In this document: in pieces, positions 7,648 through 63,585 of the stretch
How positions within the stretch are numbered: position 1 is the first letter of the stretch
Layout: every line of letters starts with the position of its first letter
DNA from: Escherichia coli O157 typing phage 4
Reading direction: 5' to 3' (one strand)
Length of the DNA stretch: 64,000 bases
Sequence record: KP869102
Notes under the pieces: model-generated
Databases searched by the model: none
What the model was told of the DNA's origin: nothing
Seen by the model: only the letters and a program-made list of their open reading frames with translations
Translations under genes and position numbers: made by a program

Positions 7648-8736
7648 TTAGATAAAACGCTTGAACATAGAAGGTGATGAGATTGATGGAATCACACAAG
7701 GAAGTGCTACCTCCTCTTTCTCCAGGAAATTAATCGCAGAAGCTACACAGTCGGCCCAGTCGTCTTTCCTGTTAAATGTTGATCTTTCCCCGTTGAATTT
7801 TTCAAGTTCAGTCAGAAATGCTTCCAGAGTATCAGGATGGAAACTGGATTTTACAATCCTAACCATTCCTTGTTGGGCAAGATTGGCAAAAGGTGAGAAC
7901 CTTGTCAGTTTAGATTTGTTGGAAGGCATTGGGTCTTCTTCAACCCTAAACCCTTCGGCGAGCAAGGATCTGGAGGATGTTAAGAACTCACTCTTACCTG
8001 CCTGACCGGGGTCCACAGAGAATACGATTATACAATCATCACCATCAAACTGCGCCTGTTTCCTGATGATCACATCTCGTTCACCAGCCTTTTTACAGAA
8101 CTTGCCTTCCAGACCTGTGGAATACCTCCCGTCATCCACGTTCTCAGGACAATAATCACCGGACAGGTAATAAAAGCCGTCGCTATCTTTACTTACCTTA
8201 ACACTGGCGGTAAAGTCAGGAAATTTATTACCGGAAGTTCTCTCGGTTCCTGCCTTATCCCATGCCCTGCAAGATACTGATCCAAGGGGTACTCTATCGG
8301 CATCACGAAGGAAAGATCTTTGAAAATAGTTTGCACCCTCAGGCTTTGCAAACCAGTTGCCATGAAGAAGCTGGGCTTTTTCAAGCTCGGGCAGACCTTC
8401 AAGAAAAGCAAGGTATTCTGGGTTGTCTCTCAAGCAGACAGGATTATCGAAGATTGTTGCGCCTATAAACGAGAATGACAACGGTCTTGGCTTGATCTCT
8501 ACACCAAGTCCGTTAACCGTGGTGTATTTCTCTATCAACTCTTCCTTAGAGTCTCCCCAAATAAATTCACCGTCGCGTCGGATAAAATATCTTTTCTTAC
8601 CGCATTTCTCCGGATCTGGATACCCTTCATCGTCCAACCACCATCTAACCAGTTTGGCAAGCATGTGTTCTGAATCTGGGTTACAGCTGATAACCATTCT
8701 TGATGGATACTTTGACTGAGATCGCAGACGAGACAT
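7648..8736 (-). CDS. terL: terminase large subunit, C-terminal nuclease part (exon 2 or separately translated half)
   Basis: 362 aa with terminase-like VISCNP segment; continues the Walker A/B-containing ORF at 9650..10078. Confidence 0.75.
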   Translation of the reverse strand: MSRLRSQSKYPSRMVISCNPDSEHMLAKLVRWWLDDEGYPDPEKCGKKRYFIRRDGEFIWGDSKEELIEKYTTVNGLGVEIKPRPLSFSFIGATIFDNPVCLRDNPEYLAFLEGLPELEKAQLLHGNWFAKPEGANYFQRSFLRDADRVPLGSVSCRAWDKAGTERTSGNKFPDFTASVKVSKDSDGFYYLSGDYCPENVDDGRYSTGLEGKFCKKAGERDVIIRKQAQFDGDDCIIVFSVDPGQAGKSEFLTSSRSLLAEGFRVEEDPMPSNKSKLTRFSPFANLAQQGMVRIVKSSFHPDTLEAFLTELEKFNGERSTFNRKDDWADCVASAINFLEKEEVALPCVIPSISSPSMFKRFI

Positions 8737-9649
8737 CAGGTAGTCTATCTGTTCCCATTCGAATTGTGTCGTTTATGTTCAGGCAAGGTCGCTAGTCTTG
8801 CCCCGCCATTTTCAGGCAGCTGCATGTCTCCATGCAGACCAGACTATATCTTATGAATGTGTAAATACTCTGCCGCTCTAAGAATAGTTTCCTCATCTTC
8901 TTGGAAGAAACCTAAAGCTCTGTTGCATTTATCACAAAGCAACCCTCTTACAGCACCAGTTTTATGGTCATGATCAACACAAAAGAAATCTCTGTACCCT
9001 TGCGTCCTATACTCATCGAGAGATATTCTACAAATGGCACACTTATGATCTTGATCTGAGAGTAGACGATAGTATTCATCTTTTGTTATGTGAAATTTCT
9101 TCTCAATCTGATAAAACTTTTCACACATCTTACACCTGTTCGTAACCAGATATACTTTACCATAGTCACGTTTTGTGTAAAAACTATCAGCGAGCATACT
9201 TTCATGACAAGATTTGCATTCAAAAAGTTCACCTTTCTTCAGCAAGTCTTGAATAAATAATGCTGCGTCATCTCTCTTAACCATATTTTTGTTTTTACGA
9301 GATCCACCCTTCCTGTAGTACATATAGCATTCCTTGCATGTACCTGAGTATCCATCCTTGCTCTTAGATGATAAAAAGAAATCATCAATAGGTAGAACTC
9401 TTTGGCAATCCATACATTTTTTAGTATTACACATTCACCCTCCCGTTTCGAATCGCTTGATTCTACGTCTTTCGACTAGTCGTTGAACGTTCATCCTCTC
9501 GGATGCTTCGCTGCGGATTATCTAAACTAACACACTGTTACCATACCTTCGATCTCTCTTCGAAGCCTCTATCATGTTACCATGACAGGTTGGTGGTGTC
9601 AATAATAAAGATTTCCCCGCAATTAGGGAGGTTTTACGAGAGCTACAAA
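8737..9649 (-). mobile_element. intervening sequence in terL: candidate group I intron (or free-standing HEG insertion)
   Basis: ~910 bp between the two terL halves; contains endonuclease ORF flanked by 215-nt and ~107-nt non-coding segments. Confidence 0.6.
8844..9434 (-). CDS. homing endonuclease, endonuclease VII/HNH family
   Basis: Cys-rich N-terminus plus CVDHDHKTGAVRGLLCDKCN motif (Endo VII-type HNH). Confidence 0.75.
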   Translation of the reverse strand: MCNTKKCMDCQRVLPIDDFFLSSKSKDGYSGTCKECYMYYRKGGSRKNKNMVKRDDAALFIQDLLKKGELFECKSCHESMLADSFYTKRDYGKVYLVTNRCKMCEKFYQIEKKFHITKDEYYRLLSDQDHKCAICRISLDEYRTQGYRDFFCVDHDHKTGAVRGLLCDKCNRALGFFQEDEETILRAAEYLHIHKI

Positions 9650-10078
9650 TTAACCCTCATCGAAGCAAACCATGGTGTACTCAAGCCCTTGATGGTTAAG
9701 CTTATCTTGTACATACTCCATGTGGCAGTATTTTACAACAGCTCCCTTTTTGCTTCTATCCCACTTGCCAGTGTTCGGATCAAACCGTGGAAAAATGAAC
9801 TTATGATCCTTCTCTCTGAACTTTGGCTTAATGTTTTCAGGCAGATCGCTATAAATAGCTACTGCTTTAGGCCATAGTCCACCCTCACCTTCCAACTGTG
9901 GGGTTGTTCTTCGGAACATAACCACAGAGCTGTGGGGGTCATCAATAATTTTAAGTGGCATCAACTGCAAGAGAAACGACTTGCCAGACCCTGCGGCACC
10001 GCCGATTACCAAAATATCTGCATCGTTTTCGAGGATCATCTTCTGCTTTTCAGAACACGGTCCGTAAATCTTAGACAT
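9650..10078 (-). CDS. terL: terminase large subunit, N-terminal ATPase part (exon 1)
   Basis: Walker A GGAAGSGKS and Walker B VCFDE; ORF ends at a stop right after Walker B. Confidence 0.8.
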   Translation of the reverse strand: MSKIYGPCSEKQKMILENDADILVIGGAAGSGKSFLLQLMPLKIIDDPHSSVVMFRRTTPQLEGEGGLWPKAVAIYSDLPENIKPKFREKDHKFIFPRFDPNTGKWDRSKKGAVVKYCHMEYVQDKLNHQGLEYTMVCFDEG

Positions 10079-11421: not shown

Positions 11422-11426
11422 AAAAA

Positions 11427-11517
11427 GGTGCTAGGTGATGGAGTCGAACCACCCGAATCGCAATGATAACAGATTTACAGTCTGCCCCGCTACCCCTACG
11501 GAATTAACTCACCTAAA
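11427..11517 (-). tRNA. tRNA-Tyr-like (anticodon GTA), long variable arm; possibly aberrant
   Basis: Anticodon arm GCAGA-CTGTAAA-TCTGT, T-arm GGTGG-TTCGACT-CCATC, variable hairpin; acceptor stem pairs imperfectly. Confidence 0.45.
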
Positions 11518-11643
11518 TACTAATATTTAAATTCTTTTTAAAATAGCTAGTGTTCTCACCACTAACTATGAGGTATCGGTAAAGTGGTTACCGCCACTTG
11601 CCGAAGATTTACTCTGCTAAAGTAAGCTACATTAAAAAGAACT

Positions 11644-11718
11644 TGGCACCCCGTACTGGACTCGAACCAGTGTCAACGGCTTAGAAGGCCGCTGCTTTAT
11701 CCACTAAGCTAACAGGGC
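11644..11718 (-). tRNA. tRNA-Arg (anticodon TCT)
   Basis: Acceptor with two G-U pairs, T-arm ACTGG-TTCGAGT-CCAGT, anticodon loop CTTCTAA, CCA encoded. Confidence 0.7.
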
Positions 11719-11814
11719 ACTGGGTGGCTTTCTTTTACACCTTAGCCGCCAGAAAAGGTGGGAGACCATGTTTACAATATTACACTGTTAAGCAAAGTTT
11801 GTCAAGAAAATATT

Positions 11815-12153
11815 TTAGCTATTGCTAACAGGCTGTATTTCTGTGGTAAACGGCATAAAAGGTGCTGGTTTTTCAGCCTCTTCTACTACCACCTCTTCCT
11901 CTTCACCAAACATCTCATCATATTCTTCCTGCATTCGGTCTGCCTTATCAAGAACATACTCTGCAATGCTTTGACGAATATTTTGTTTGGTTTTCGGGTC
12001 CAACATCAGCTCTCTTAAAACTTTGTGAGCTTCTGGAACCATCGCTATAAAAGATTCCTTCATATCAAGGATGTTCTTCTCTAGCTGAATGGCGTTGGAC
12101 TCCTCTTTCAGAGGTCTGCCTCTACGGCGACGCTTTTTAGTTGTATCCGCCAT
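11815..12153 (-). CDS. putative terminase small subunit / DNA-binding packaging protein
   Basis: 112 aa from ATG at 12153 (GGAGGA RBS); basic N-terminus KKRRRRGRP, acidic C-terminus; upstream of terL. Confidence 0.4.
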   Translation of the reverse strand: MADTTKKRRRRGRPLKEESNAIQLEKNILDMKESFIAMVPEAHKVLRELMLDPKTKQNIRQSIAEYVLDKADRMQEEYDEMFGEEEEVVVEEAEKPAPFMPFTTEIQPVSNS

Positions 12154-12501
12154 GTTTCCTCCATTATCACGTGATAGGTGGATTTTATCACAGCAAATAC
12201 TGATTGTCAAGTTCGCCGCAGGGTGGTGTTCCCTGCGACTTGTCCAGCGTCCTGGACCAGCAAGACCCAACAAGTGGGTTTTCCAGCTATACCCATTACC
12301 GCGCTCAGGCTCGACCTTATTACAGGTTGGCTGGGGTCACATCGTCATGTGCTGGCTGCCCCTACCATTTTAAGTGTGGTGCACTATCAAGCCCTCTAAG
12401 GGGAACTCAGTCTTCTCCGAACCCTGTTTCAAAGCATCCGGAGATAAAGCCATCAAATTCATCTTTAAATTGGATATTCATCATGATACACGAAAACAAC
12501 C

Positions 12502-12744
12502 TCATTGTAAAGCGCAAATAAATAAAACATACTTAATTTGTTTGTTATCAGGCTCAGGGTAGAAGTAGAAGATCTTGCTATCACCGATCTGAACACCACC
12601 ATCCCAACAGCATAGCCCATAACCTGTATTCATACAAGCTAAGTCGTTGGCAAAATCTATTGCATCATCCAGTGCACGAAATTCACCTTCATCTTCTAAA
12701 TAATCCTCATTCATGGAACGAAAAACGAGCTTAACCTTAAACAT
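12502..12744 (-). CDS. hypothetical protein
   Basis: 80-aa minus-strand ORF. Confidence 0.35.
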   Translation of the reverse strand: MFKVKLVFRSMNEDYLEDEGEFRALDDAIDFANDLACMNTGYGLCCWDGGVQIGDSKIFYFYPEPDNKQIKYVLFICALQ

Positions 12745-12820
12745 AGCATTACCTGTAGACCTCGTAAGTTAAAATTGTAGCACATCATATTGCAGATCTT
12801 ATCAGGTAACACTGTTTTTG

Positions 12821-13030
12821 TCAACAGATTCCGGCCTTATCTCGCCTGTCTGCGTATTCTTTAATCGCAACCTCATCTGCATTAGTGACCAGGTCTTCAA
12901 AGTAACTCTCAAGCTCCTCGTCAATGTCAGGAGACCAGCTCTTTTTCCTGTCAGTGTGAATTGCAGACTTGTTGAACTTATTACAGTTCTTTGCTACCGG
13001 GTTATTCATTAAGCGCTCCTCAGCGTTCAT
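12821..13030 (-). CDS. hypothetical protein
   Basis: 69-aa acidic ORF, short overlap with upstream gene. Confidence 0.3.
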   Translation of the reverse strand: MNAEERLMNNPVAKNCNKFNKSAIHTDRKKSWSPDIDEELESYFEDLVTNADEVAIKEYADRRDKAGIC

Positions 13031-13598
13031 AGTAAATTTTATTTAACATTACCTCATCCTTTGCAGAAAGAATACCGAGATATGCATCACCGAATCTACC
13101 TGCAACAACCTCTGCATGATACATTACTTCGTTAATATCGTCAAGAGTGATAACTGGATGACCGTATCTCTCTGAGTATTGTCTCAGAGTGCGATGTAGA
13201 GAGTCATCATCATAGGCAGACTTTTTAATATCACAAACACGACGAATAGCCTTGATGTCGAAAAACCCTGTACGATACCAACCAAGAAAAAGGTTTCGTG
13301 CAGTGTCAACATCTACATCAATACCATCAAGAACCTTATCTACAAGATAGCTATCATCCTTTGGACTCGCTTCCTTAGTGCGGATATAGTTGCCATCTTT
13401 TCCAGGTGACAGCTCCTTCTCATCACCAGCCTTCATGTCATCATTTGGCGGGGTTAGCCACTTATCCGGATGCTTACGATCACGAGCGTTAGAATGATTA
13501 CGCTGGAAACCTGGCTGCCACTTGAAAGTTTTCTCCATCTGTTCTTCATTCTGATAACGTTTTGCAATCTTTTCACGGTCATCTTTGCGTGAACTCAT
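13020..13598 (-). CDS. hypothetical protein
   Basis: 192-aa ORF. Confidence 0.5.
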   Translation of the reverse strand: MSSRKDDREKIAKRYQNEEQMEKTFKWQPGFQRNHSNARDRKHPDKWLTPPNDDMKAGDEKELSPGKDGNYIRTKEASPKDDSYLVDKVLDGIDVDVDTARNLFLGWYRTGFFDIKAIRRVCDIKKSAYDDDSLHRTLRQYSERYGHPVITLDDINEVMYHAEVVAGRFGDAYLGILSAKDEVMLNKIYYER

Positions 13599-14102
13599 AG
13601 CTGCCTCCTCTTCAAGTTATAGAAAAACTCACTGTATCGCTTTGTAACGAGCTTTTCTATCAAACTGGTGCGATTGCATTACTTGGTATGGTTTATATAG
13701 CTGTGGAGCGATTTAGGGTCCTTCTTGTCCGTTTCCACACATAAACTTTATCCAAACTCGCGCGGGAGGCTCTCAACCGACTCCTTACGGCGCTGGCAAG
13801 CTTTCGTCGGTGGCCCACATTAGTGCTCGGCCTTTGGCCTGCGCTATCGCTTCGCTCCCACACATGTTAACAGACCTGCATGTATGCACTTCTGTTATTG
13901 TGTGCACTATGGAGGCCCGGCATCTCGCCCCTCGTAGGCGAGTGCCAATGAAGGGCCGACACTACCCATAGTAAGTAATAAATTTAAAACATGGTACTTA
14001 GGATCTAATATATTCTACATAAGTTAAGTATATGTACTTTAGTACCATAAGTACTAGATCTTTTATTTTTTATTATTCAGTTATTTTAGTTATATTCTTT
14101 AT

Positions 14103-14170
14103 GTGTCCGTATCACGGACAGTTAGTGTCCGTATTACGGGCAGTAGTGTCCGTATCACGGACAGTTAGTG
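14103..14170. repeat. three tandem palindromes TGTCCGT-N3-ACGGACA (candidate operator or origin sites)
   Basis: 18-bp inverted repeat present three times at ~21-23 bp spacing; middle copy degenerate. Confidence 0.6.
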
Positions 14171-14238
14171 GACTCTGTTCCAGAGCGAACATAAAACATA
14201 CGAATCCTTATAGTACAGATATTTAAGTTTTTACTGGT

Positions 14239-14589
14239 CTAACCAGTTGTTGACATCCGAATAACCTCTTCTGGTGGCAAAACTTTGGAAAATGTGCATC
14301 TTTTACCTCTCCCTTGTGTGGATGTTTCAACCACCCCCGCACACTCTAAAGTTTTAACGCACGCTGCTGCTTTTGTTTTCTTTATCCCAACATCTGCTGC
14401 AATTTTCCTTGTGCTTGGTGTGAAGCGTGAATTTCCTCCAAGCTTATACCAGTTGTGCAGGTAGCAGTATACAATCTTGTCATACAAGTCAAGAACAACA
14501 ACCTCTCCAGTTGTGTCATTCAAAACTTTTGACATAGACAGTATTTCAAGGGGGACTTTAAGATATAGCAGCTTATCCCCATCTTTCAT
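14239..14589 (-). CDS. putative HTH DNA-binding protein
   Basis: 116 aa with helix-turn-helix-like segment TRKIAADVGIKKTKAAACVKTLECAGVV. Confidence 0.45.
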   Translation of the reverse strand: MKDGDKLLYLKVPLEILSMSKVLNDTTGEVVVLDLYDKIVYCYLHNWYKLGGNSRFTPSTRKIAADVGIKKTKAAACVKTLECAGVVETSTQGRGKRCTFSKVLPPEEVIRMSTTG

Positions 14590-14636
14590 ATCTCCTGATT
14601 CTCCTTGTGTGGCAATTTTCTTTAAAATAGCAGGGA

Positions 14637-15191
14637 TTACTCCCCGCTGTCAATAGCAAAACTCATTGCAATACGGTATGCTTCTTCTAATGGTAAGAGT
14701 CTCCCCCACACATCCCAACCGACATCAAGCTGCCTGCCAAACAACTGTTGTGTGGTTCCGTGAGCATGACCGAACAGTTGGACTGATCCATGAGGCTTTC
14801 TGTTCCACTTTGCAAACTGGTAATGGCTCATACAGATCAAATTCTTGTTGTGGCGAAGCTCGTAATAATCTACAACCTCGTGATAGAACTCTTTCATAAT
14901 TCTGACAGTCGTCCTTGTGTCATGGTTGCCACGAACAAGAATAATATGTCCGTTCAACATATTTAGAATATCCGGGAGTAAGTTGTTGATATTCTTATCA
15001 TTAGTGCACGCAATATCTCCCAAGTGGAACACAGTGTCTGCAGGTGACACAACAGAGTTCCACTCGGCGATGATTCCTGCATTCATACTGTCAAGATTGT
15101 GATCATACTGAGATCTGTGTTTTTGACATGAATCAAACTCCATGACCCGCTGGTGGAGAAAGTGTGTGTCGCTTGTTACAAAGTATTTCAT
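14637..15191 (-). CDS. calcineurin-like metallophosphoesterase
   Basis: Motifs DTHF, GDIAC, GNHD; start trimmed to ATG at 15191 with GAGGA RBS. Confidence 0.7.
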   Translation of the reverse strand: MKYFVTSDTHFLHQRVMEFDSCQKHRSQYDHNLDSMNAGIIAEWNSVVSPADTVFHLGDIACTNDKNINNLLPDILNMLNGHIILVRGNHDTRTTVRIMKEFYHEVVDYYELRHNKNLICMSHYQFAKWNRKPHGSVQLFGHAHGTTQQLFGRQLDVGWDVWGRLLPLEEAYRIAMSFAIDSGE

Positions 15192-15198
15192 ACATTCC

Positions 15199-15609
15199 TC
15201 ATTTAAGTTTAATGCAGTTTTTAAGCTGGCGTTCCATACGATCCACAACCCTGTCTGGAACATCATGAATGCTTTTATTACCGTGGCGGTTTTCAACCAC
15301 GATCACGGTATAACTATACCCATGACTGATTGCCATGTCAACATATTCCTGCACATGTTTTTCTTTTGTAAACGTATTACTTACCACGATACGGTCGTAT
15401 CCCATACGCATCATATCTTCTACGTTATCTTTGCACCATTTTGCTGCGAGTGTTACTTTACTTGCATCCCAGTTGTAATTGCCGTCATCGTCATACCAGA
15501 ACATGTCGTTCTCAAAATGTGGATACAGACCTTCTAAAGATAGCGCATTTGCCAGTGTTGATTTGCCAGACCCTGGCAGACCACGCACGATATATAGCAT
15601 TTTAGACAT
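15199..15609 (-). CDS. P-loop kinase (polynucleotide kinase-like)
   Basis: Walker A GLPGSGKST near N-terminus; start at ATG 15609 with GGAGGA RBS. Confidence 0.6.
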   Translation of the reverse strand: MSKMLYIVRGLPGSGKSTLANALSLEGLYPHFENDMFWYDDDGNYNWDASKVTLAAKWCKDNVEDMMRMGYDRIVVSNTFTKEKHVQEYVDMAISHGYSYTVIVVENRHGNKSIHDVPDRVVDRMERQLKNCIKLK

Positions 15610-15709
15610 AGCAATCCTCCGTTTTAATTTTAATGATAGTATACCTAACTGTTTTGTTAATTTCAAGTGTTGACACTAGGTTATTTGTGTGGCAGGATAG
15701 ACTGACAAA

Positions 15710-16645
15710 ATGACAAATGAGGAACGTATGATGAAGTATTTTAATGCAGACGATCTAGTTGACAAAGGTCTTGTAACCAGCAGATATTACCCAGATCTTG
15801 GATTAAAGATTTATAAATATGCCAGAAAAGTATTTTACAACAATTTATGGCATTTGTCCCCTCGTTTGCTGGAGTGCCGAGGCATTGTTGTCGGTAATGA
15901 AGGAAATGTTGTGGCATGGCCCTTCACAAAAGTGTTTAACTTGGGAGAAAATCACACCAACCTGCCTGACAATAAGCTTGTGACGGCGGTAGAGAAAAAG
16001 AACGGATTCCTCGGTGTGGTGTCATCTCATAAAGGTGAACTATTGTTCTCAACAACCGGATCTCTTGATTCCCCATATTGTAACCTCGCAAAGGAAACCA
16101 TCCGGGAGCAATGTGGTAATTTAGATCTTATCAAGAAGGTTATGGGCAATGAAAACATGACATTCATGTTTGAAATTTGTCACCCTTCAGATCCGCATAT
16201 TGTTCAGGAAGATCATGGCGCATATTTGATAGGTTGCAGATATAATGATTCTGGAATAATGCTACCAGAAGCAGCTTTAGATGGGATTGCCAAATACCTT
16301 GGCGCAAAACGTCCTCACACTGTGCGTGAAATTCCGTTCAGCTATGCAAAAGAATTGGCTGCAGAAACAAGAGGTGAAGGGTATATGATTCGTAAGCCTT
16401 ACTACCCTTATGATCTGCAGCTGAAGATCAAGTCTCCATACTATCTGGCACGGAAGGCCGTAATGAGGGGTAAAGCTTGGAAGATTTGGGATGATGATAT
16501 CTTTAAACGTGTTGACGAAGAGTTTTACGGCATGGTAAACTTCATTCGTAGCAATTACACAGAAGATGTGTGGAACTGCCTACTGGAGCAGGAACGCAGG
16601 GAGATACTCGACCACTATTTCCACAACGAGGACTATATGCAATGA
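15710..16645 (+). CDS. putative RNA ligase (nucleotidyltransferase superfamily)
   Basis: Lysine motif VEKKNGF (KxNG) in 311-aa protein; divergent from flanking kinase/phosphoesterase. Confidence 0.5.
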   Translation: MTNEERMMKYFNADDLVDKGLVTSRYYPDLGLKIYKYARKVFYNNLWHLSPRLLECRGIVVGNEGNVVAWPFTKVFNLGENHTNLPDNKLVTAVEKKNGFLGVVSSHKGELLFSTTGSLDSPYCNLAKETIREQCGNLDLIKKVMGNENMTFMFEICHPSDPHIVQEDHGAYLIGCRYNDSGIMLPEAALDGIAKYLGAKRPHTVREIPFSYAKELAAETRGEGYMIRKPYYPYDLQLKIKSPYYLARKAVMRGKAWKIWDDDIFKRVDEEFYGMVNFIRSNYTEDVWNCLLEQERREILDHYFHNEDYMQ

Positions 16646-51910: not shown

Positions 51911-52012
51911 ATGGAATACACAATGAAAACATTGTCCGAAGTTTTAGTGGTGATCCTGATGATCATTACGTCCATAGCGGCTGTTGCCGGAATACTCACG
52001 GGTGGAACATGA
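51911..52012 (+). CDS. small membrane peptide (33 aa)
   Basis: GGAG RBS; hydrophobic LVVILMIITSIAAVAGIL; ATGA overlap with next gene. Confidence 0.3.
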   Translation: MEYTMKTLSEVLVVILMIITSIAAVAGILTGGT

Positions 52013-52221
52013 TCAACACACATGCATCTGAAGAGACATCAAAAGGAGTGACTATATGTCCCTTGGCTGAGCCAGTGAAAGAGGAAAACTTCGATTCTGA
52101 AGATTCTCCATCTTCGCTCCAGGTAGACCCTGAGGCTGATGACCTAACGTGGGAAGACATCGTAGATATCTGGTTCTCTGTTATGCCTGAGCACGAAGAG
52201 TTCAGGGGTGGTAGACTATGA
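52009..52221 (+). CDS. hypothetical acidic protein
   Basis: Internal ATG of track ORF 51808..52221; the upstream part of that ORF would run through the promoter. Confidence 0.35.
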   Translation: MINTHASEETSKGVTICPLAEPVKEENFDSEDSPSSLQVDPEADDLTWEDIVDIWFSVMPEHEEFRGGRL

Positions 52222-52342
52222 AGCACCGAGCCCACACAAGTTCCTCATGCTAAAGCATGGCCTGAAGAGGCAAACGTGCATAATTCCTGTGCATCGGAAC
52301 GTATGAAACCTTGTTCACACTCTCATTTCCAGAGGAGATTTT

Positions 52343-52558
52343 ATGAAGATAGAAATATTTGGTGGAGCTGACAACACTCGTGGCCTGATTTACCTTGAAT
52401 TCGATGAATCATACCTACCAGAGGTGTTAAATATAGACTCTGTTGCGGAGGCTTTGGGAGTAAACCCTAAAGAACTCCACTCTTGTGCTGAGATCGATGG
52501 TTGGGAAGAGACCATGAACATTGATTTCAGTGAAGTAGAGGATGAACCGCTGGACTGA
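52343..52558 (+). CDS. small acidic protein (MKIEIFG N-terminus)
   Basis: 71 aa, GGAG RBS, acidic tail. Confidence 0.4.
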   Translation: MKIEIFGGADNTRGLIYLEFDESYLPEVLNIDSVAEALGVNPKELHSCAEIDGWEETMNIDFSEVEDEPLD

Positions 52559-52793
52559 CACACAATTAGCTGCCCGGCTAAAGTGCTGGAAGCACCTATA
52601 ACACATCTTTCAACTAAATTTCCCACCACAACAATCACTTACCTCCCATACATGACTGTTTGCTTGTTTAGTGAGCAGTCATGCCTTGACATTCTTGCCT
52701 ATCCTGATAAAATTAAGTTCTTCTCTTTTCTTTTACCGAGTAATTCGGGTTTTCTGTTCTCTTCGGTTTGAAGGGGTATGGAGATACACCTGA

Positions 52794-52893
52794 NNNNNNN
52801 NNNNNNNNNNNNNNNNNNNNNNNNNNNNNNNNNNNNNNNNNNNNNNNNNNNNNNNNNNNNNNNNNNNNNNNNNNNNNNNNNNNNNNNNNNNNN
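52794..52893. other. assembly gap (run of N)
   Basis: 100 consecutive N. Confidence 0.99.
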
Positions 52894-52944
52894 TTAGTGG
52901 CGGGAAGTTTTCCCGCCTGTGTTTTTAATTATACTTATTGAGAT

Positions 52945-53205
52945 TTACTTGTCAACACTATTTTTTAAATTATTGTGGCGCAAAATGTTTAAAATCTCTT
53001 CAACGTCATCAACACGGCGGCAATTTTTAAACGCTACCAATTGCCCCATGATTTTAATCACTGGGCGGCCTTGCCAGTGCCCCTGGAGAAAGCGCGCCTT
53101 GACTTTATCAGTGGAACTATCACGCCACCAAACGGCCTTGTTATTGCAGTAGTAAAAATTATTCAGGACAATATCAACTTTATCAAAATTTTTTAATTTA
53201 CGCAT
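52945..53205 (-). CDS. hypothetical protein
   Basis: 86-aa minus-strand ORF. Confidence 0.4.
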   Translation of the reverse strand: MRKLKNFDKVDIVLNNFYYCNNKAVWWRDSSTDKVKARFLQGHWQGRPVIKIMGQLVAFKNCRRVDDVEEILNILRHNNLKNSVDK

Positions 53206-53413
53206 AGTGTTTACTCCTTCCTTCTTGCTTTGATGTGGTTAGTATATCCGGACTATTCCAAGGTGTCAAGCTTTAAATAAAATCACTGTCAATGATATTT
53301 TTAACACCATAAAACGGCCCTGGGTGATGTTTTCAGGCTAAGAAAGGGGATTGCATAGGTAGGGGCTTTTGTGGCGTTTGTGGGGCCAACCAGGGGCGCT
53401 ATTCGTAGGATAG

Positions 53414-53442
53414 AAATAAAAAGCCCCGCACAATGGCGGGGC
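53414..53442 (-). terminator. rho-independent terminator
   Basis: On minus strand GCCCCGC-CATTGT-GCGGGGC followed by TTTTTATTT. Confidence 0.55.
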
Positions 53443-53531
53443 GTTGGTTGTTATTTGTCTTTATGGCGGTATCGTTCCGCTTGTCGTTCACGTTCCAAAA
53501 GTAGGCCCGGCAATTTACGATCATAATGATT

Positions 53532-53633
53532 CCNNNNNNNNNNNNNNNNNNNNNNNNNNNNNNNNNNNNNNNNNNNNNNNNNNNNNNNNNNNNNNNNNNN
53601 NNNNNNNNNNNNNNNNNNNNNNNNNNNNNNNNN
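53532..53633. other. assembly gap (run of N)
   Basis: About 100 consecutive N. Confidence 0.99.
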
Positions 53634-53949
53634 TGGCCTGAATCGCCCGGATACGGCGTTTTATAACCTCCTGATCCGTGCAATCGTATCCCCAAAAGTC
53701 TACAATTTTCGCGCCGCCAGCTTTTAAGCGGTATAATGTTTCTTGCATTTTGTAAGCTGGGATCGGTCGCGGTGTTACCTGGTCGCCTTTTTCATCCTTG
53801 TACTTGATTATGTAGTCCTCGTTGTCGTTGAATACCCAAAAAGGGTACTCTGTAAGGGCGTTGCTTTCTTTTTCGTTTTTAGATTGGATCTTGTTTACAA
53901 TTAAAGCCGTAGCAATAGCGCCAATAATAAAACTAGCCCCGCTGATCAT
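53634..53949 (-). CDS. hypothetical protein with N-terminal TM helix, partial (runs into gap)
   Basis: Minus ORF from ATG ~53949; 3-prime end lost in N run. Confidence 0.35.
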
Positions 53950-54024
53950 GTTACTTTCTCCTTTCATTGTGTTGATAAACTATCTTTATAGATGGCCCTG
54001 TTACCAGGACCACCGAAAAAATAA

Positions 54025-54270
54025 CTATTTCACAATGCCTACAAAACAGATCCCGCCTTCACCTATATAGGCAATATCGGTAATTTTATAATTTGTCAAG
54101 ATCCGCGTGTTCAGATCATTAATAAAATCGGTCATCGCGTTGGTGTAGTTGTCTTCCGTGTCTAAGGCATAATCCCAGGTGTAAACCTTTTTACGTCCGA
54201 AGCCTTTTACCATGATACGGGCGCTTTTGGTGTTGGTAGGGGCATAATATTTGGTGATTAGTGCTGCCAT
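54025..54270 (-). CDS. hypothetical protein
   Basis: 81 aa, AGGAG RBS. Confidence 0.4.
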   Translation of the reverse strand: MAALITKYYAPTNTKSARIMVKGFGRKKVYTWDYALDTEDNYTNAMTDFINDLNTRILTNYKITDIAYIGEGGICFVGIVK

Positions 54271-54359
54271 GGTTTTAACTCCTCTGAATTAGTTCAGTGT
54301 TAACAGTATAAAGTTTACTTTATTGATGGCCCTGAAGTCAAGGCCATCTAAAAATAAAC

Positions 54360-54701
54360 TTACTCGTTTTCTTCCAGCTCCGCAAGCTCTTCTTTTGCTT
54401 CTTCTAACTCTGTCTGTAGTTCCTGGTATTCTTCATCGTCCTCAATATCCAGGCTGTCGATGTAGTCGCTAAATCCGCAGCGGTAAGCGATAGGATCTAG
54501 CTCCTTGAGGATACGCGACGGAAGAAAAGAAATGTTTCCGATCATAATTTCGCCGTAGATCTCGTCTAACCATTCATCATAGTTTTCGTCGTACTTGTCC
54601 TCGTCGATTTCAAAGTTATCGATCTTGTTCTCAAGGTCTGCGATCTGTTTTTTCAGCGCGGCGATCTGCATAGCTTTTTCTGCGGCGGTCATAGTAGTCA
54701 T
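54360..54701 (-). CDS. hypothetical acidic coiled-coil protein
   Basis: 113 aa, AAGGAG RBS. Confidence 0.45.
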   Translation of the reverse strand: MTTMTAAEKAMQIAALKKQIADLENKIDNFEIDEDKYDENYDEWLDEIYGEIMIGNISFLPSRILKELDPIAYRCGFSDYIDSLDIEDDEEYQELQTELEEAKEELAELEENE

Positions 54702-54980
54702 GGTGTTTTCTCCTTTTGTGTGCTCTGGGAAGTTTTCCCGTTTACGTGTTTAAGTATAGCGATCTAAGTTAGTTTGTCAATTAAAAATTTAAGAAAAATT
54801 TTGCAAAACTGTTAGCGCTACTCATTAACATTTGCGCCAGGATGTAACCAATGATGCAAACGATAATAGTTACCTTTGTGTGCTGGCGTGTAGTACTCAT
54901 CTTTAAGCCCCCCTTTCCGCTCAACTGTGGTTAGTTTACTTTATTGATGGCCCTGGAGTCAAGGCCATCTAAAAATAAAC

Positions 54981-55376
54981 TCAGTACGTTTTCAGTACTT
55001 TCCCGTCCAACCTGTCTAACTGAATCTCAATAGCTGCAGAAAACCTATTGTAAACCACATCGCCCAAGGAGTCCAGCCAATCTATAACGTTATACACCTG
55101 CTCTTTATTCTTGCAAGTCCGGATCCGTTTCATTACGTAAGACGGATCAATATTAGTACTCCCGTTGTTGTGGTCATGCGCCTGGCCTGCTGCACTGGTT
55201 ATAGATTTTACAACCACCTGAAAGGGCTTTAAGGTGCCTTTTGCGTTCATCTCACGCGCTTTTGCGGCGCGGTTGTTATATGTTACACAACGGCGGCAAA
55301 TGTTGAATAAATGCATGTCAATAATTTTTTCATCGTTTGCCAGTTCGTTCATGATGCGGCGTACGTTCTTATTCAT
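54981..55376 (-). CDS. hypothetical protein
   Basis: 131 aa, AGAGGA RBS. Confidence 0.45.
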   Translation of the reverse strand: MNKNVRRIMNELANDEKIIDMHLFNICRRCVTYNNRAAKAREMNAKGTLKPFQVVVKSITSAAGQAHDHNNGSTNIDPSYVMKRIRTCKNKEQVYNVIDWLDSLGDVVYNRFSAAIEIQLDRLDGKVLKTY

Positions 55377-55460
55377 AGCTTTTCCTCTGTGTTGGCGGGA
55401 TGTTTCCCGCCTTTTGTGTCTAGTTTACTTGAATTTTGCAGCGTGTCAATAATTTTTTTT

Positions 55461-55859
55461 TTATTCGTGGGCACATGTTACAATGTGCTTTTTATAGCCC
55501 AGGTGGGCAGCAAGTGCCGCCAAAAACTCATCTTCATAGATCCAGCCGTTGGCAGTGATCCCCATAGCATTTAATGCGCTCTCAAGTGCTGCGTTAGCTT
55601 TATCATAACCGTGACCGCTCGCCTTGCCGCCAGTATAACCGTACTTATTGTTCTTGTTGTCGTGTATCCAAAAAACGCAGTAGTTAGTGTTACCGCTGGC
55701 GGCGGCATAGTACCGGATCTCCGCTACTTCGTGCAAATTATTATCATCGTCCAGGCCAACCAGATTATAAGCCTTGTAAAATCCACGATCACGGCGGCAG
55801 TTCTTGACATCAGAAAAAGAGAAGTCGGCATTGTCAAAATTAAAGGTTGTGGTTTTCAT
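55461..55859 (-). CDS. hypothetical protein
   Basis: 132-aa ORF. Confidence 0.45.
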   Translation of the reverse strand: MKTTTFNFDNADFSFSDVKNCRRDRGFYKAYNLVGLDDDNNLHEVAEIRYYAAASGNTNYCVFWIHDNKNNKYGYTGGKASGHGYDKANAALESALNAMGITANGWIYEDEFLAALAAHLGYKKHIVTCAHE

Positions 55860-55923
55860 GATTTTATCCTCTTAGTGTCTTTTGTGATTTCAGTATATTT
55901 TGTGTCGGGGCGTATGTCAATAC

Positions 55924-56121
55924 TTATTTTTTATTAAACCAGTGATTGATCTGACCTTTTGTCAGGGCGCAACGATTAAGCTGTTGCAGGGTATAGCTAT
56001 GACCGCGACGAAATTTATAAAGGCCTTGCCCGTTGTTGATGGTTACATCCACCAGGCAAACCACTTGATCGGTGACCACCTGGCGAGTGTTGCGACGTAC
56101 TTTGATTCCGTATGCGTTCAT
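55924..56121 (-). CDS. hypothetical basic protein
   Basis: 65-aa ORF. Confidence 0.35.
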   Translation of the reverse strand: MNAYGIKVRRNTRQVVTDQVVCLVDVTINNGQGLYKFRRGHSYTLQQLNRCALTKGQINHWFNKK

Positions 56122-63516: not shown

Positions 63517-63585
63517 GAAATGGGCAAAAAAGATGCAGAGGACAGCTCAATTCGGGAGTCATATCTACTACAAGGAGCGCAATAA

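Follow-up and report, generated by a model that had tools for sequence, protein, structure and literature searches.

A conserved hairpin island beside an origin-like region of rV5-like phages, with related modules in small plasmids of Escherichia coli

The island and its neighbourhood

The window analysed here, a stretch of 64,000 nucleotides from Escherichia coli O157 typing phage 4 (record KP869102), belongs to an rV5-like Vequintavirus and is 100% identical to Escherichia phage JES2013, position 13400 of the window corresponding to position 63544 of that record. Two minus-strand genes, ORF72 (13020-13598) and ORF73 (14239-14589), enclose a gap of 640 bp (13599-14238), in which the initial annotation had placed a GC-rich non-coding island at 13640-13990. 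Such an island does lie between these genes, with tighter limits: the segment as first drawn has a GC content of 0.50 (z 2.2, a level reached by 1.8% of windows of the same length), and the GC-rich core proper, 13756-13965, reaches 0.59 (z 3.8; 0.02% of windows as high) against a mean of 0.426 for the whole window. The locus is made up as follows.

13020-13598, minus strand: ORF72, 192 aa, phrog_12226, directly downstream of the island on that strand
13599-13690, minus strand: 5′ leader of ORF72 with a nearly invariant hairpin (arms 13619-13630 and 13649-13660; identity 0.98)
13691-13759, unstranded: variable pre-array segment (identity 0.88), with the first CCACACA at 13735-13741
13760-13819, plus strand: module A1, a 6-bp stem (13776-13781 with 13806-13811), ending in GGCCCACA
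13820-13864, plus strand: module B, a GGCC-TTT-GGCC hairpin inside GTGC/GCGC, with its CCCACACA end at 13857-13864
13859-13904, plus strand: hairpin 2, with a CACACA/TGTGTG closure, a TAACAGA/TCTGTTA stem and a TGCA-TGTA-TGCA tip
13905-13972, plus strand: module F, a nested hairpin with a conserved core at 13911-13960, GGAGGCCCG...GAAGGGCCGAC
13966-14102, unstranded: AT-rich stretch of 137 bp, 20% GC (z -4.2), with two GATC sites (identity 0.96-0.97)
14103-14170, unstranded: palindromes, three copies of the 19-bp TGTCCGTATCACGGACA, 21-22 bp apart
14239-14589, minus strand: ORF73, a 116-aa winged-helix protein, phrog_12838 'replication initiation protein'

ORF73 consists of a DNA-binding domain only; further weak matches are to HTH_36 and to the DNA-binding N-terminal portion of additional initiator families, and 78 of 118 phages have the protein at 99% identity or more. 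For ORF72, the AlphaFold model has a pLDDT of 51 and its top fold matches are winged-helix proteins at E ≥ 0.1, none of them significant, while its sequence finds no match in the PDB. Homologues of either protein outside Vequintavirus are absent from the phage collection. The 5′ UTR of ORF73 (window 14600-14612, minus strand) reads CCACACAAGGAG, in which the linker motif of the array is fused to a Shine-Dalgarno sequence. CCACACA occurs in the window at about twice its expected frequency, with 9 of its 20 sites within 13.7-16.7 kb.

In a BLASTN-type comparison with related phages, 118 Vequintavirus genomes proved to carry the island full length, holding 402 bp at 90-100% identity (95-99% in 104 of them), and because of this an assembly artefact or contamination, one of the outcomes that could have undone the initial annotation, is ruled out. 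An alignment of nine genomes gives 94-96% identity for the A1/B and F parts, 96-97% for the AT-rich part and 90-97% for the flanking coding sequence, i.e. the non-coding block is conserved about as well as the genes around it. The absence of a convincing ORF was likewise borne out: no frame is open consistently across 11 variants, from one to another of which the stop-free stretches differ in both length and frame, and the 56-aa 'ORF78' annotated in rV5, which falls within the island, is therefore probably not a gene.

Several parts of the island vary between lineages. The CCCACACA copy at 13857-13864 is the only copy of this motif conserved in all phage variants; the L142 lineage keeps the CCCACACA punctuation at one of three phage positions, and CCACACA at 13735-13741 is not conserved in the L093/L142 lineage. 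In rV5 and Pr121LW, hairpin 2 is shorter by 18 nt, with CACACATG-CATGTGTG pairing still possible (by inspection), and the innermost pair of its long stem is A-T, T-A or C-G depending on the phage lineage. In the ORF72-leader hairpin, an A.C mismatch of the plus strand corresponds to a G.U pair on the minus strand. The AT-rich stretch contains, at 14057-14069, the only perfect oriC 13-mer consensus GATCTnTTnTTTT in the 64-kb window and is a candidate DNA-unwinding element. The palindromes beside it, also given as GTGTCCGTATCACGGACAG (three copies), number four in most relatives versus three in the window, and are candidate binding sites of ORF73.

Other features of the window and of related records deserve mention in their own right. 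At 8820-9662 (minus strand), a group I intron splits the terminase large-subunit gene (CDSs 7648-8664 and 9650-10078); it matches Rfam Intron_gpI at 46.5 bits (E 4.9e-10), just below the gathering score of 50, and carries the 'endonuclease VII' ORF64 (8844-9323), with a weaker match at the same place, beside an HNH gene, in the divergent relative L093. A first GC-rich non-coding island at 12154-12501, in the ORF70/ORF69 gap (48% GC, z 1.6; minus-strand folding z -1.8), has no Rfam or E. coli match and no modules in common with the island described here or with the compared plasmid. Comparison of 11422-11643 with L002 1331-1818 shows JES2013 to be without the tRNA-Ser, the tRNA-Tyr and the atypical tRNA that phage nomine has between tRNA-Thr and tRNA-Arg; rV5 has tRNA-Ser and tRNA-Tyr. 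To the right of ORF73, at 14637-16645, lies a tRNA-repair-like set made up of the metallophosphoesterase ORF74, the AAA_33/polynucleotide-kinase-like ATPase ORF75 and the RNA ligase ORF76; the last is of the T4 Rnl1 type and divergently transcribed, and the phage tRNA cluster is situated 2-3 kb to the left. Positions 52600-53200 (within 52000-56000) are very AT-rich (27-29% GC) and coincide with the maximum of the cumulative GC skew of the window; they lie near a region of rV5 described as having 'no observable ORFs' (rV5 104013-106618) in the rV5 genome paper (PMC3606486). Among the related records, L091 (CP057073.1), a circular 'plasmid' (137.5 kb) from E. coli RHB39-C03, turns out to be the whole genome of a Vequintavirus, and 18 'Campylobacter phage' records, which in this region share about 95% identity with rV5-like phages of E. 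coli, may be mislabelled.

Folding and covariation of the hairpins

The island folds far better than shuffled controls on both strands, under RNA as well as DNA parameters (z between -2.95 and -3.3; -3.1 and -3.3 for the latter), and its folding energy shows no strand preference. Comparing phage with plasmid, three of the six pairs of the A1 stem are changed on both sides with pairing kept, and two pairs of the inner stem of module F are likewise changed on both sides (G-C to T-A), covariation that for A1 and F comes largely from one phage-to-plasmid comparison. Among the phages alone no covariation is seen, because their sequences are too similar. In plasmid module C, for which six variants are available, 98.6% of cells are paired and 9 of the 12 pairs are changed on both sides, with no one-sided (wobble) changes; no shuffle equalled these values, and slid controls collapse. 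The hairpins are selected for. Since G.T mismatches in the stems are about as frequent as A.C mismatches, neither strand is favoured.

Perfect-stem hairpins with triloops abound in the plasmid modules, where 9 of the 29 distinct ones carry G-N-A on the plus strand; triloops of the complementary type number only three, two of them in a module that is inverted. The heptamer CCGAAGG, a mini-hairpin named in RSF1010 ssiA, occurs in plasmid module C. Triloops of the d(GNA) type are exceptionally stable in DNA and are found at the G4 priming site, in RSF1010 ssiA and in the N4 hairpin promoters (PMC3201870; PMC13037366). Taken together, covariation without wobble and the G-N-A triloops of the plasmids lean towards hairpins formed in single-stranded DNA, chiefly for the plasmid arrays. 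The G-N-A argument rests on the plasmid modules, because the four modules of the phage are without such triloops, their loops being TTT, TGTA and 7 nt.

A scan of the whole window against Rfam 15 at gathering scores returned four tRNAs only, a permissive scan of 11700-14300 (E ≤ 10) added only a chance-level rli43 (24 bits versus a gathering score of 100), and three plasmid loci together with L093 gave nothing for the arrays or the island; the Rfam/Infernal check proposed with the initial annotation thus gave no family for the island even at this permissive threshold. A tRNA-like reading was rejected, as ARAGORN reports no tRNA beyond the four already known. The gap yielded neither a sigma-70-like promoter nor an intrinsic terminator. 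On the plus strand upstream of the island, inspection shows a possible extended -10 element (TGGTATAGT), which is not conserved in all lineages. Of the earlier suggestion of 'a structured RNA or regulatory DNA', what stands is a conserved, strongly structured and functional non-coding element, supported by the conservation, the folding z of about -3 and the compensatory stem changes; the RNA form is left without an Rfam match, a promoter or a strand preference.

Related arrays in small plasmids

Among 5,426 complete E. coli genomes, similar sequences are confined to unannotated regions of small plasmids, and the chromosomes hold no copy of the phage island or of either array type. The 'foreign-looking' character ascribed to the island therefore applies to its composition only, with no sign of an import from the host chromosome: E. 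coli chromosomes are without a match, and the relatives are arrays of small plasmids. At least nine plasmids of about 13.3-13.7 kb, one of them assembled as a trimer, carry related arrays (family members L003/L005, NZ_CP020521.1; L006-L009; L082-L085; L094-L098), and protein databases contain more than 45 Rep variants of the family, all on E. coli contigs, mostly of 13.4-14.4 kb.

The plasmid array is a mosaic of hairpin modules located between a divergent promoter region and iterons, each module ending in (C)CCACACA, with CCCACACA as the unit end. Modules are present, absent or reordered from one plasmid to another, and one is inverted in L008. The strongest of the few nucleotide matches between plasmids and the phage window are module A1 (82.5% identity over 63 bp) and module F (87% over 54 bp, in L003 and L094). 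The 24-nt loop of A1, TCCTTACGGCGCTGGCAAGCTTTC, differs between phage and plasmids at a single position. Most family plasmids are without F and several without A1, and the other plasmid modules (A2-type arrays) have no counterpart in 50,697 phage records. In the plasmids, the hairpin array is followed, in this order and orientation, by a 13-mer-like GATCTATTAATTT (one mismatch) and then by 4-6 iterons 23 bp apart; the iteron sequence differs between plasmids, and a Rep-like wHTH gene, whose product has no significant similarity to ORF73, is found nearby. DnaA boxes of L005 lie at least 0.9 kb from its iterons. Module T, the last of the array, resembles an intrinsic terminator on the plus strand, which suggests that the plasmid array may be transcribed; a weak plus-strand promoter precedes the array. 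In L003 (6300-6790) and at the equivalent place in L094, the two plasmids bearing F, this module is followed by about 330 bp and then by three palindromic repeats, which differ between the two (TATATCA..TTGATAT versus TGTGCTGCTATCGCACA); the order of F, spacer and palindromes mirrors that of the phage, as if the three parts were one cassette.

The plasmids also encode a major head protein, a Neck1/tail-completion protein, a Dit-like protein, a tape measure protein and HTH/Rep-like proteins. Their head protein is 23% and their neck protein 43-45% identical to the phage (Vequintavirus) counterparts, and no terminase is annotated or detected among their products. The neck protein has homologues in about 244 records of phages with many different hosts, those among the matches listed being large genomes (116-172 kb), including PVP-SE1, which is related to rV5. 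Judging from the head, neck, Dit and tape-measure genes, from the lack of a detected terminase and from the neck homologues in large phages, these capsid-encoding E. coli plasmids of about 13.7 kb are probably satellites of Vequintavirinae. Our literature search found no description of satellites of rV5-like phages or of these plasmids.

Further searches for relatives stayed within the phage genus. The module F pattern gave 59 loci in metagenomes, of which the five real ones are all Vequintavirus, and the A1 core had one match in IMG/VR, on a Vequintavirus contig. A motif scan of viral contigs for two CCCACACA copies plus CCCACA returned 71 loci, all low-complexity sequence or tandem repeats and none related, and the eight loci obtained with the module T pattern in genome contigs are unrelated terminator-like palindromes.

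An origin-like layout and its possible function

Read from ORF73 towards ORF72, the phage region consists of a wHTH gene, directly downstream of it three to four palindromes 21-22 bp apart, i.e. at least three helix-phased repeats beside an initiator-type gene, an AT-rich stretch with GATCTnTTnTTTT, and the hairpin island. The divergent relative L093 is a Vequintavirus contig whose ORF72 is 83% identical and remains coupled with the island. Its wHTH gene, its palindromes and its AT-rich stretch are replacements: the substitute wHTH protein weakly matches phrog_8102 and phrog_12838 (E 4e-6 and 0.006), and is accompanied by four copies of another 23-bp palindrome and another AT-rich stretch. L093 nevertheless keeps the order of the parts and the island up to the last base of F, the right-hand end of conservation between the two. 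The island is therefore separable from the specificity of ORF73, and the architecture is maintained. No island is present beside the ORF72 relative of L092 (51% identical). The minimum of the cumulative GC skew of the window falls about 1.5 kb to the right of the island, where it coincides with a switch in the direction of transcription; the rV5 genome paper notes the same skew switch, and skew analysis is its only attempt at finding an origin (PMC3606486).

This layout resembles that of iteron-type origins such as lambda ori and the oriV of pSC101, P1 and F, in which an initiator gene is likewise accompanied by three to five phased repeats; an AT-rich stretch that includes a GATCT 13-mer comes next, and the flank after it is palindromic or rich in GC. 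In lambda ori, for example, the iterons number four and are joined by an AT-rich region and a palindrome. In iteron origins, initiator and repeats are exchanged together between relatives, as they are between the phage and L093. The phage differs from them in that ORF73 has only 116 aa and no helicase-recruiting domain, in that its repeats are true palindromes, as in operators, and in the lack of DnaA boxes: no TTWTNCACA is found within 13000-15000, and a reading of CCACA as part of a DnaA box was rejected, as the TTAT half is not conserved. ORF73 and its palindromes could equally be a repressor-operator pair. 'Regulatory DNA' fits the island better than 'structured RNA', because the island forms the GC-rich arm of a region that is origin-like or operator-like.

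A second likeness is to the single-strand initiation (ssi) signals of RSF1010 oriV (ssiA/ssiB) and to the complementary-strand origin of phage G4, where GC-rich hairpins also stand beside the AT-rich or iteron part of an origin. Known ssi hairpins, which include G-N-A mini-hairpins, are active only as single-stranded DNA and expose a short unpaired stretch to a primase of their own (PMC13037366). The island has conserved hairpins that can fold as single-stranded DNA. In the phage it adjoins an AT-rich region with repeats that resembles an origin, and the plasmid arrays adjoin what looks like a bona fide iteron region, both of them predicted origins. Its differences from these systems are several: the phage's own modules are without G-N-A triloops; RSF1010 ssiA shares CCGAAGG with plasmid module C and no homology beyond this 7-mer; the CTG start triplet 3′ of the G4-type hairpin is absent here, where the hairpins are followed by (C)CCACACA; and RSF1010 has two 40-nt signals on opposite strands, whereas the island has four different hairpins on one strand.

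From this anatomy, together with the conservation, the stem covariation and the sharing of modules with plasmids, we infer origin activity, action as single-stranded DNA and priming, and we tentatively favour, as the best explanation though far from an assured one, a role of the island as the structured arm of a region resembling a replication origin, in which it would act as single-stranded DNA in the manner of ssi priming signals. ORF73, as a small winged-helix protein of the initiator type, would bind the three to four phased palindromes beside its own gene, upon which the adjoining 137-bp stretch of 20% GC, with its perfect oriC-type 13-mer, would melt. Melting would extend into the island, whose strands would then fold into the stable hairpins A1, B, hairpin 2 and F; these may keep the bubble open and serve as a structured single-stranded entry or priming site for the helicase-primase of the phage. 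The plasmids, carrying the same kind of array at the same position and in the same orientation beside an iteron origin of their own, would have acquired A1 and F from the phage. A more speculative and rather doubtful extension of this explanation is that the island represents the helper-side copy of a modular system of cis-elements, in which a hitherto undescribed class of plasmid-borne, capsid-encoding satellites of virulent Vequintavirinae would collect CCCACACA-punctuated hairpin modules (A1 and F from rV5-like helpers, the rest from further helpers) to capture the replication (or packaging) machinery of a helper when it infects; the island itself would then be a specific entry site for helicase-primase and a new component of phage origins.

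The main competitor, which we hold to be a genuine though uncertain possibility, is that the island works as a structured RNA, either as the leader or a processed stable RNA of a minus-strand operon running from ORF72 to the tRNAs, or as the RNA partner (antisense or sponge) of a plus-strand transcript of the satellite arrays, by which helper and satellite would influence each other. The island is probably transcribed, because every flanking gene is read from the minus strand, with no terminator between ORF73 and ORF72, and its retention with ORF72 when the upstream module was swapped would suit such an RNA, as would the G.U pair that the ORF72-proximal hairpin has on the minus strand only and the sole variable base of the A1 loop, which on that strand turns GUAA into GGAA, both GNRA loops. 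In the plasmid arrays, the terminator-like end hairpins on the plus strand, with a weak promoter before them, point the same way. The unpaired CCCACACA linkers between hairpins recall sponge RNAs (CsrB/RsmZ, CrcZ), in which variable hairpins also expose a repeated short unpaired motif; in those RNAs, however, the motif is GGA, whereas it is CA-rich here, the phage conserves one motif copy, and the RNA is a predicted one with no Rfam match. Stem covariation fits RNA equally well, but the covarying stems show no wobble intermediates and triloops, unusual for RNA, predominate. An RNA is further disfavoured by the want of an Rfam family for phage or plasmids and of a promoter-like site in the gap, the possible extended -10 TGGTATAGT not being kept in all lineages, by the equal folding energy of both strands and the inversion of one module in L008, and by the lack of counterparts in the 50,697 phage records for plasmid modules other than A1 and F.

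Packaging offers an unlikely explanation, by which the island would serve this headful phage as its pac recognition site, and satellites that have no terminase would have copied it to be packaged by that of the helper. In its favour, permutation is described for the rV5 genome (PMC3606486); no terminase is annotated or detected in the plasmids, which do have genes for head, neck, Dit and tape measure; their A1 and F are 82-87% identical to the phage while the shared proteins are only 23-43% identical; and the element is single-copy in the window. Preservation of hairpins by compensation would nonetheless be unexpected for pac, because terminase small subunits read duplex DNA; the island lies 4-6 kb from the terminase large-subunit gene, and F is missing from most family plasmids and A1 from several. 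No terminase small subunit was identified in the phage, the model of ORF72 being uninformative in this respect. Quite unlikely, too, is a REP/BIME-like cluster of palindromes spread as a cassette and acting as mRNA-stabilising hairpin, gyrase site or junction for module recombination. Like REP/BIME elements, the arrays are extragenic mosaics of GC-rich imperfect palindromes with short conserved linkers, in which modules come and go, are reordered and are once inverted; F sits exactly at the recombination boundary of L093 and at the edge of an insertion of about 500 bp in L003 and L094, and by inspection module A2 resembles the REP core (CCGGAT...CTTATCCGG). Yet REP/BIME are chromosomal repeats, copies of one family joined by a GTAG/CTAC linker, whereas here each hairpin is different, the linker is CCCACACA with no GTAG tetranucleotide, the 5,426 E. 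coli chromosomes hold no copy and the phage window a single array. No RAYT-like gene is present among the genes examined, the plasmid proteins scanned against Pfam and PHROGs giving no match to a RAYT-type transposase, and both the conservation of the island in 118 phages, comparable to that of coding sequence, and the nearly invariant 24-nt A1 loop argue for a sequence-specific role. That the island encodes a small protein is highly improbable: ORFs of 53-56 aa exist on both strands, including the one annotated in rV5 (ORF78), but the open frames vary in length and frame among the 11 variants, there are indels of 1, 3 and 18 nt, and no ribosome-binding site is seen before them (by inspection).

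To our knowledge, the replication origin of rV5-like phages, which are widely used in E. coli biocontrol and therapy, has never been located. The region described here provides a concrete candidate for it, combining an initiator-like protein, repeats, a putative unwinding element and a structured arm. If the plasmids are indeed satellites of a virulent myovirus that are kept as plasmids, they would represent a new satellite lifestyle, and the hairpin modules that they share with the phage would be their means of exploiting the helper.
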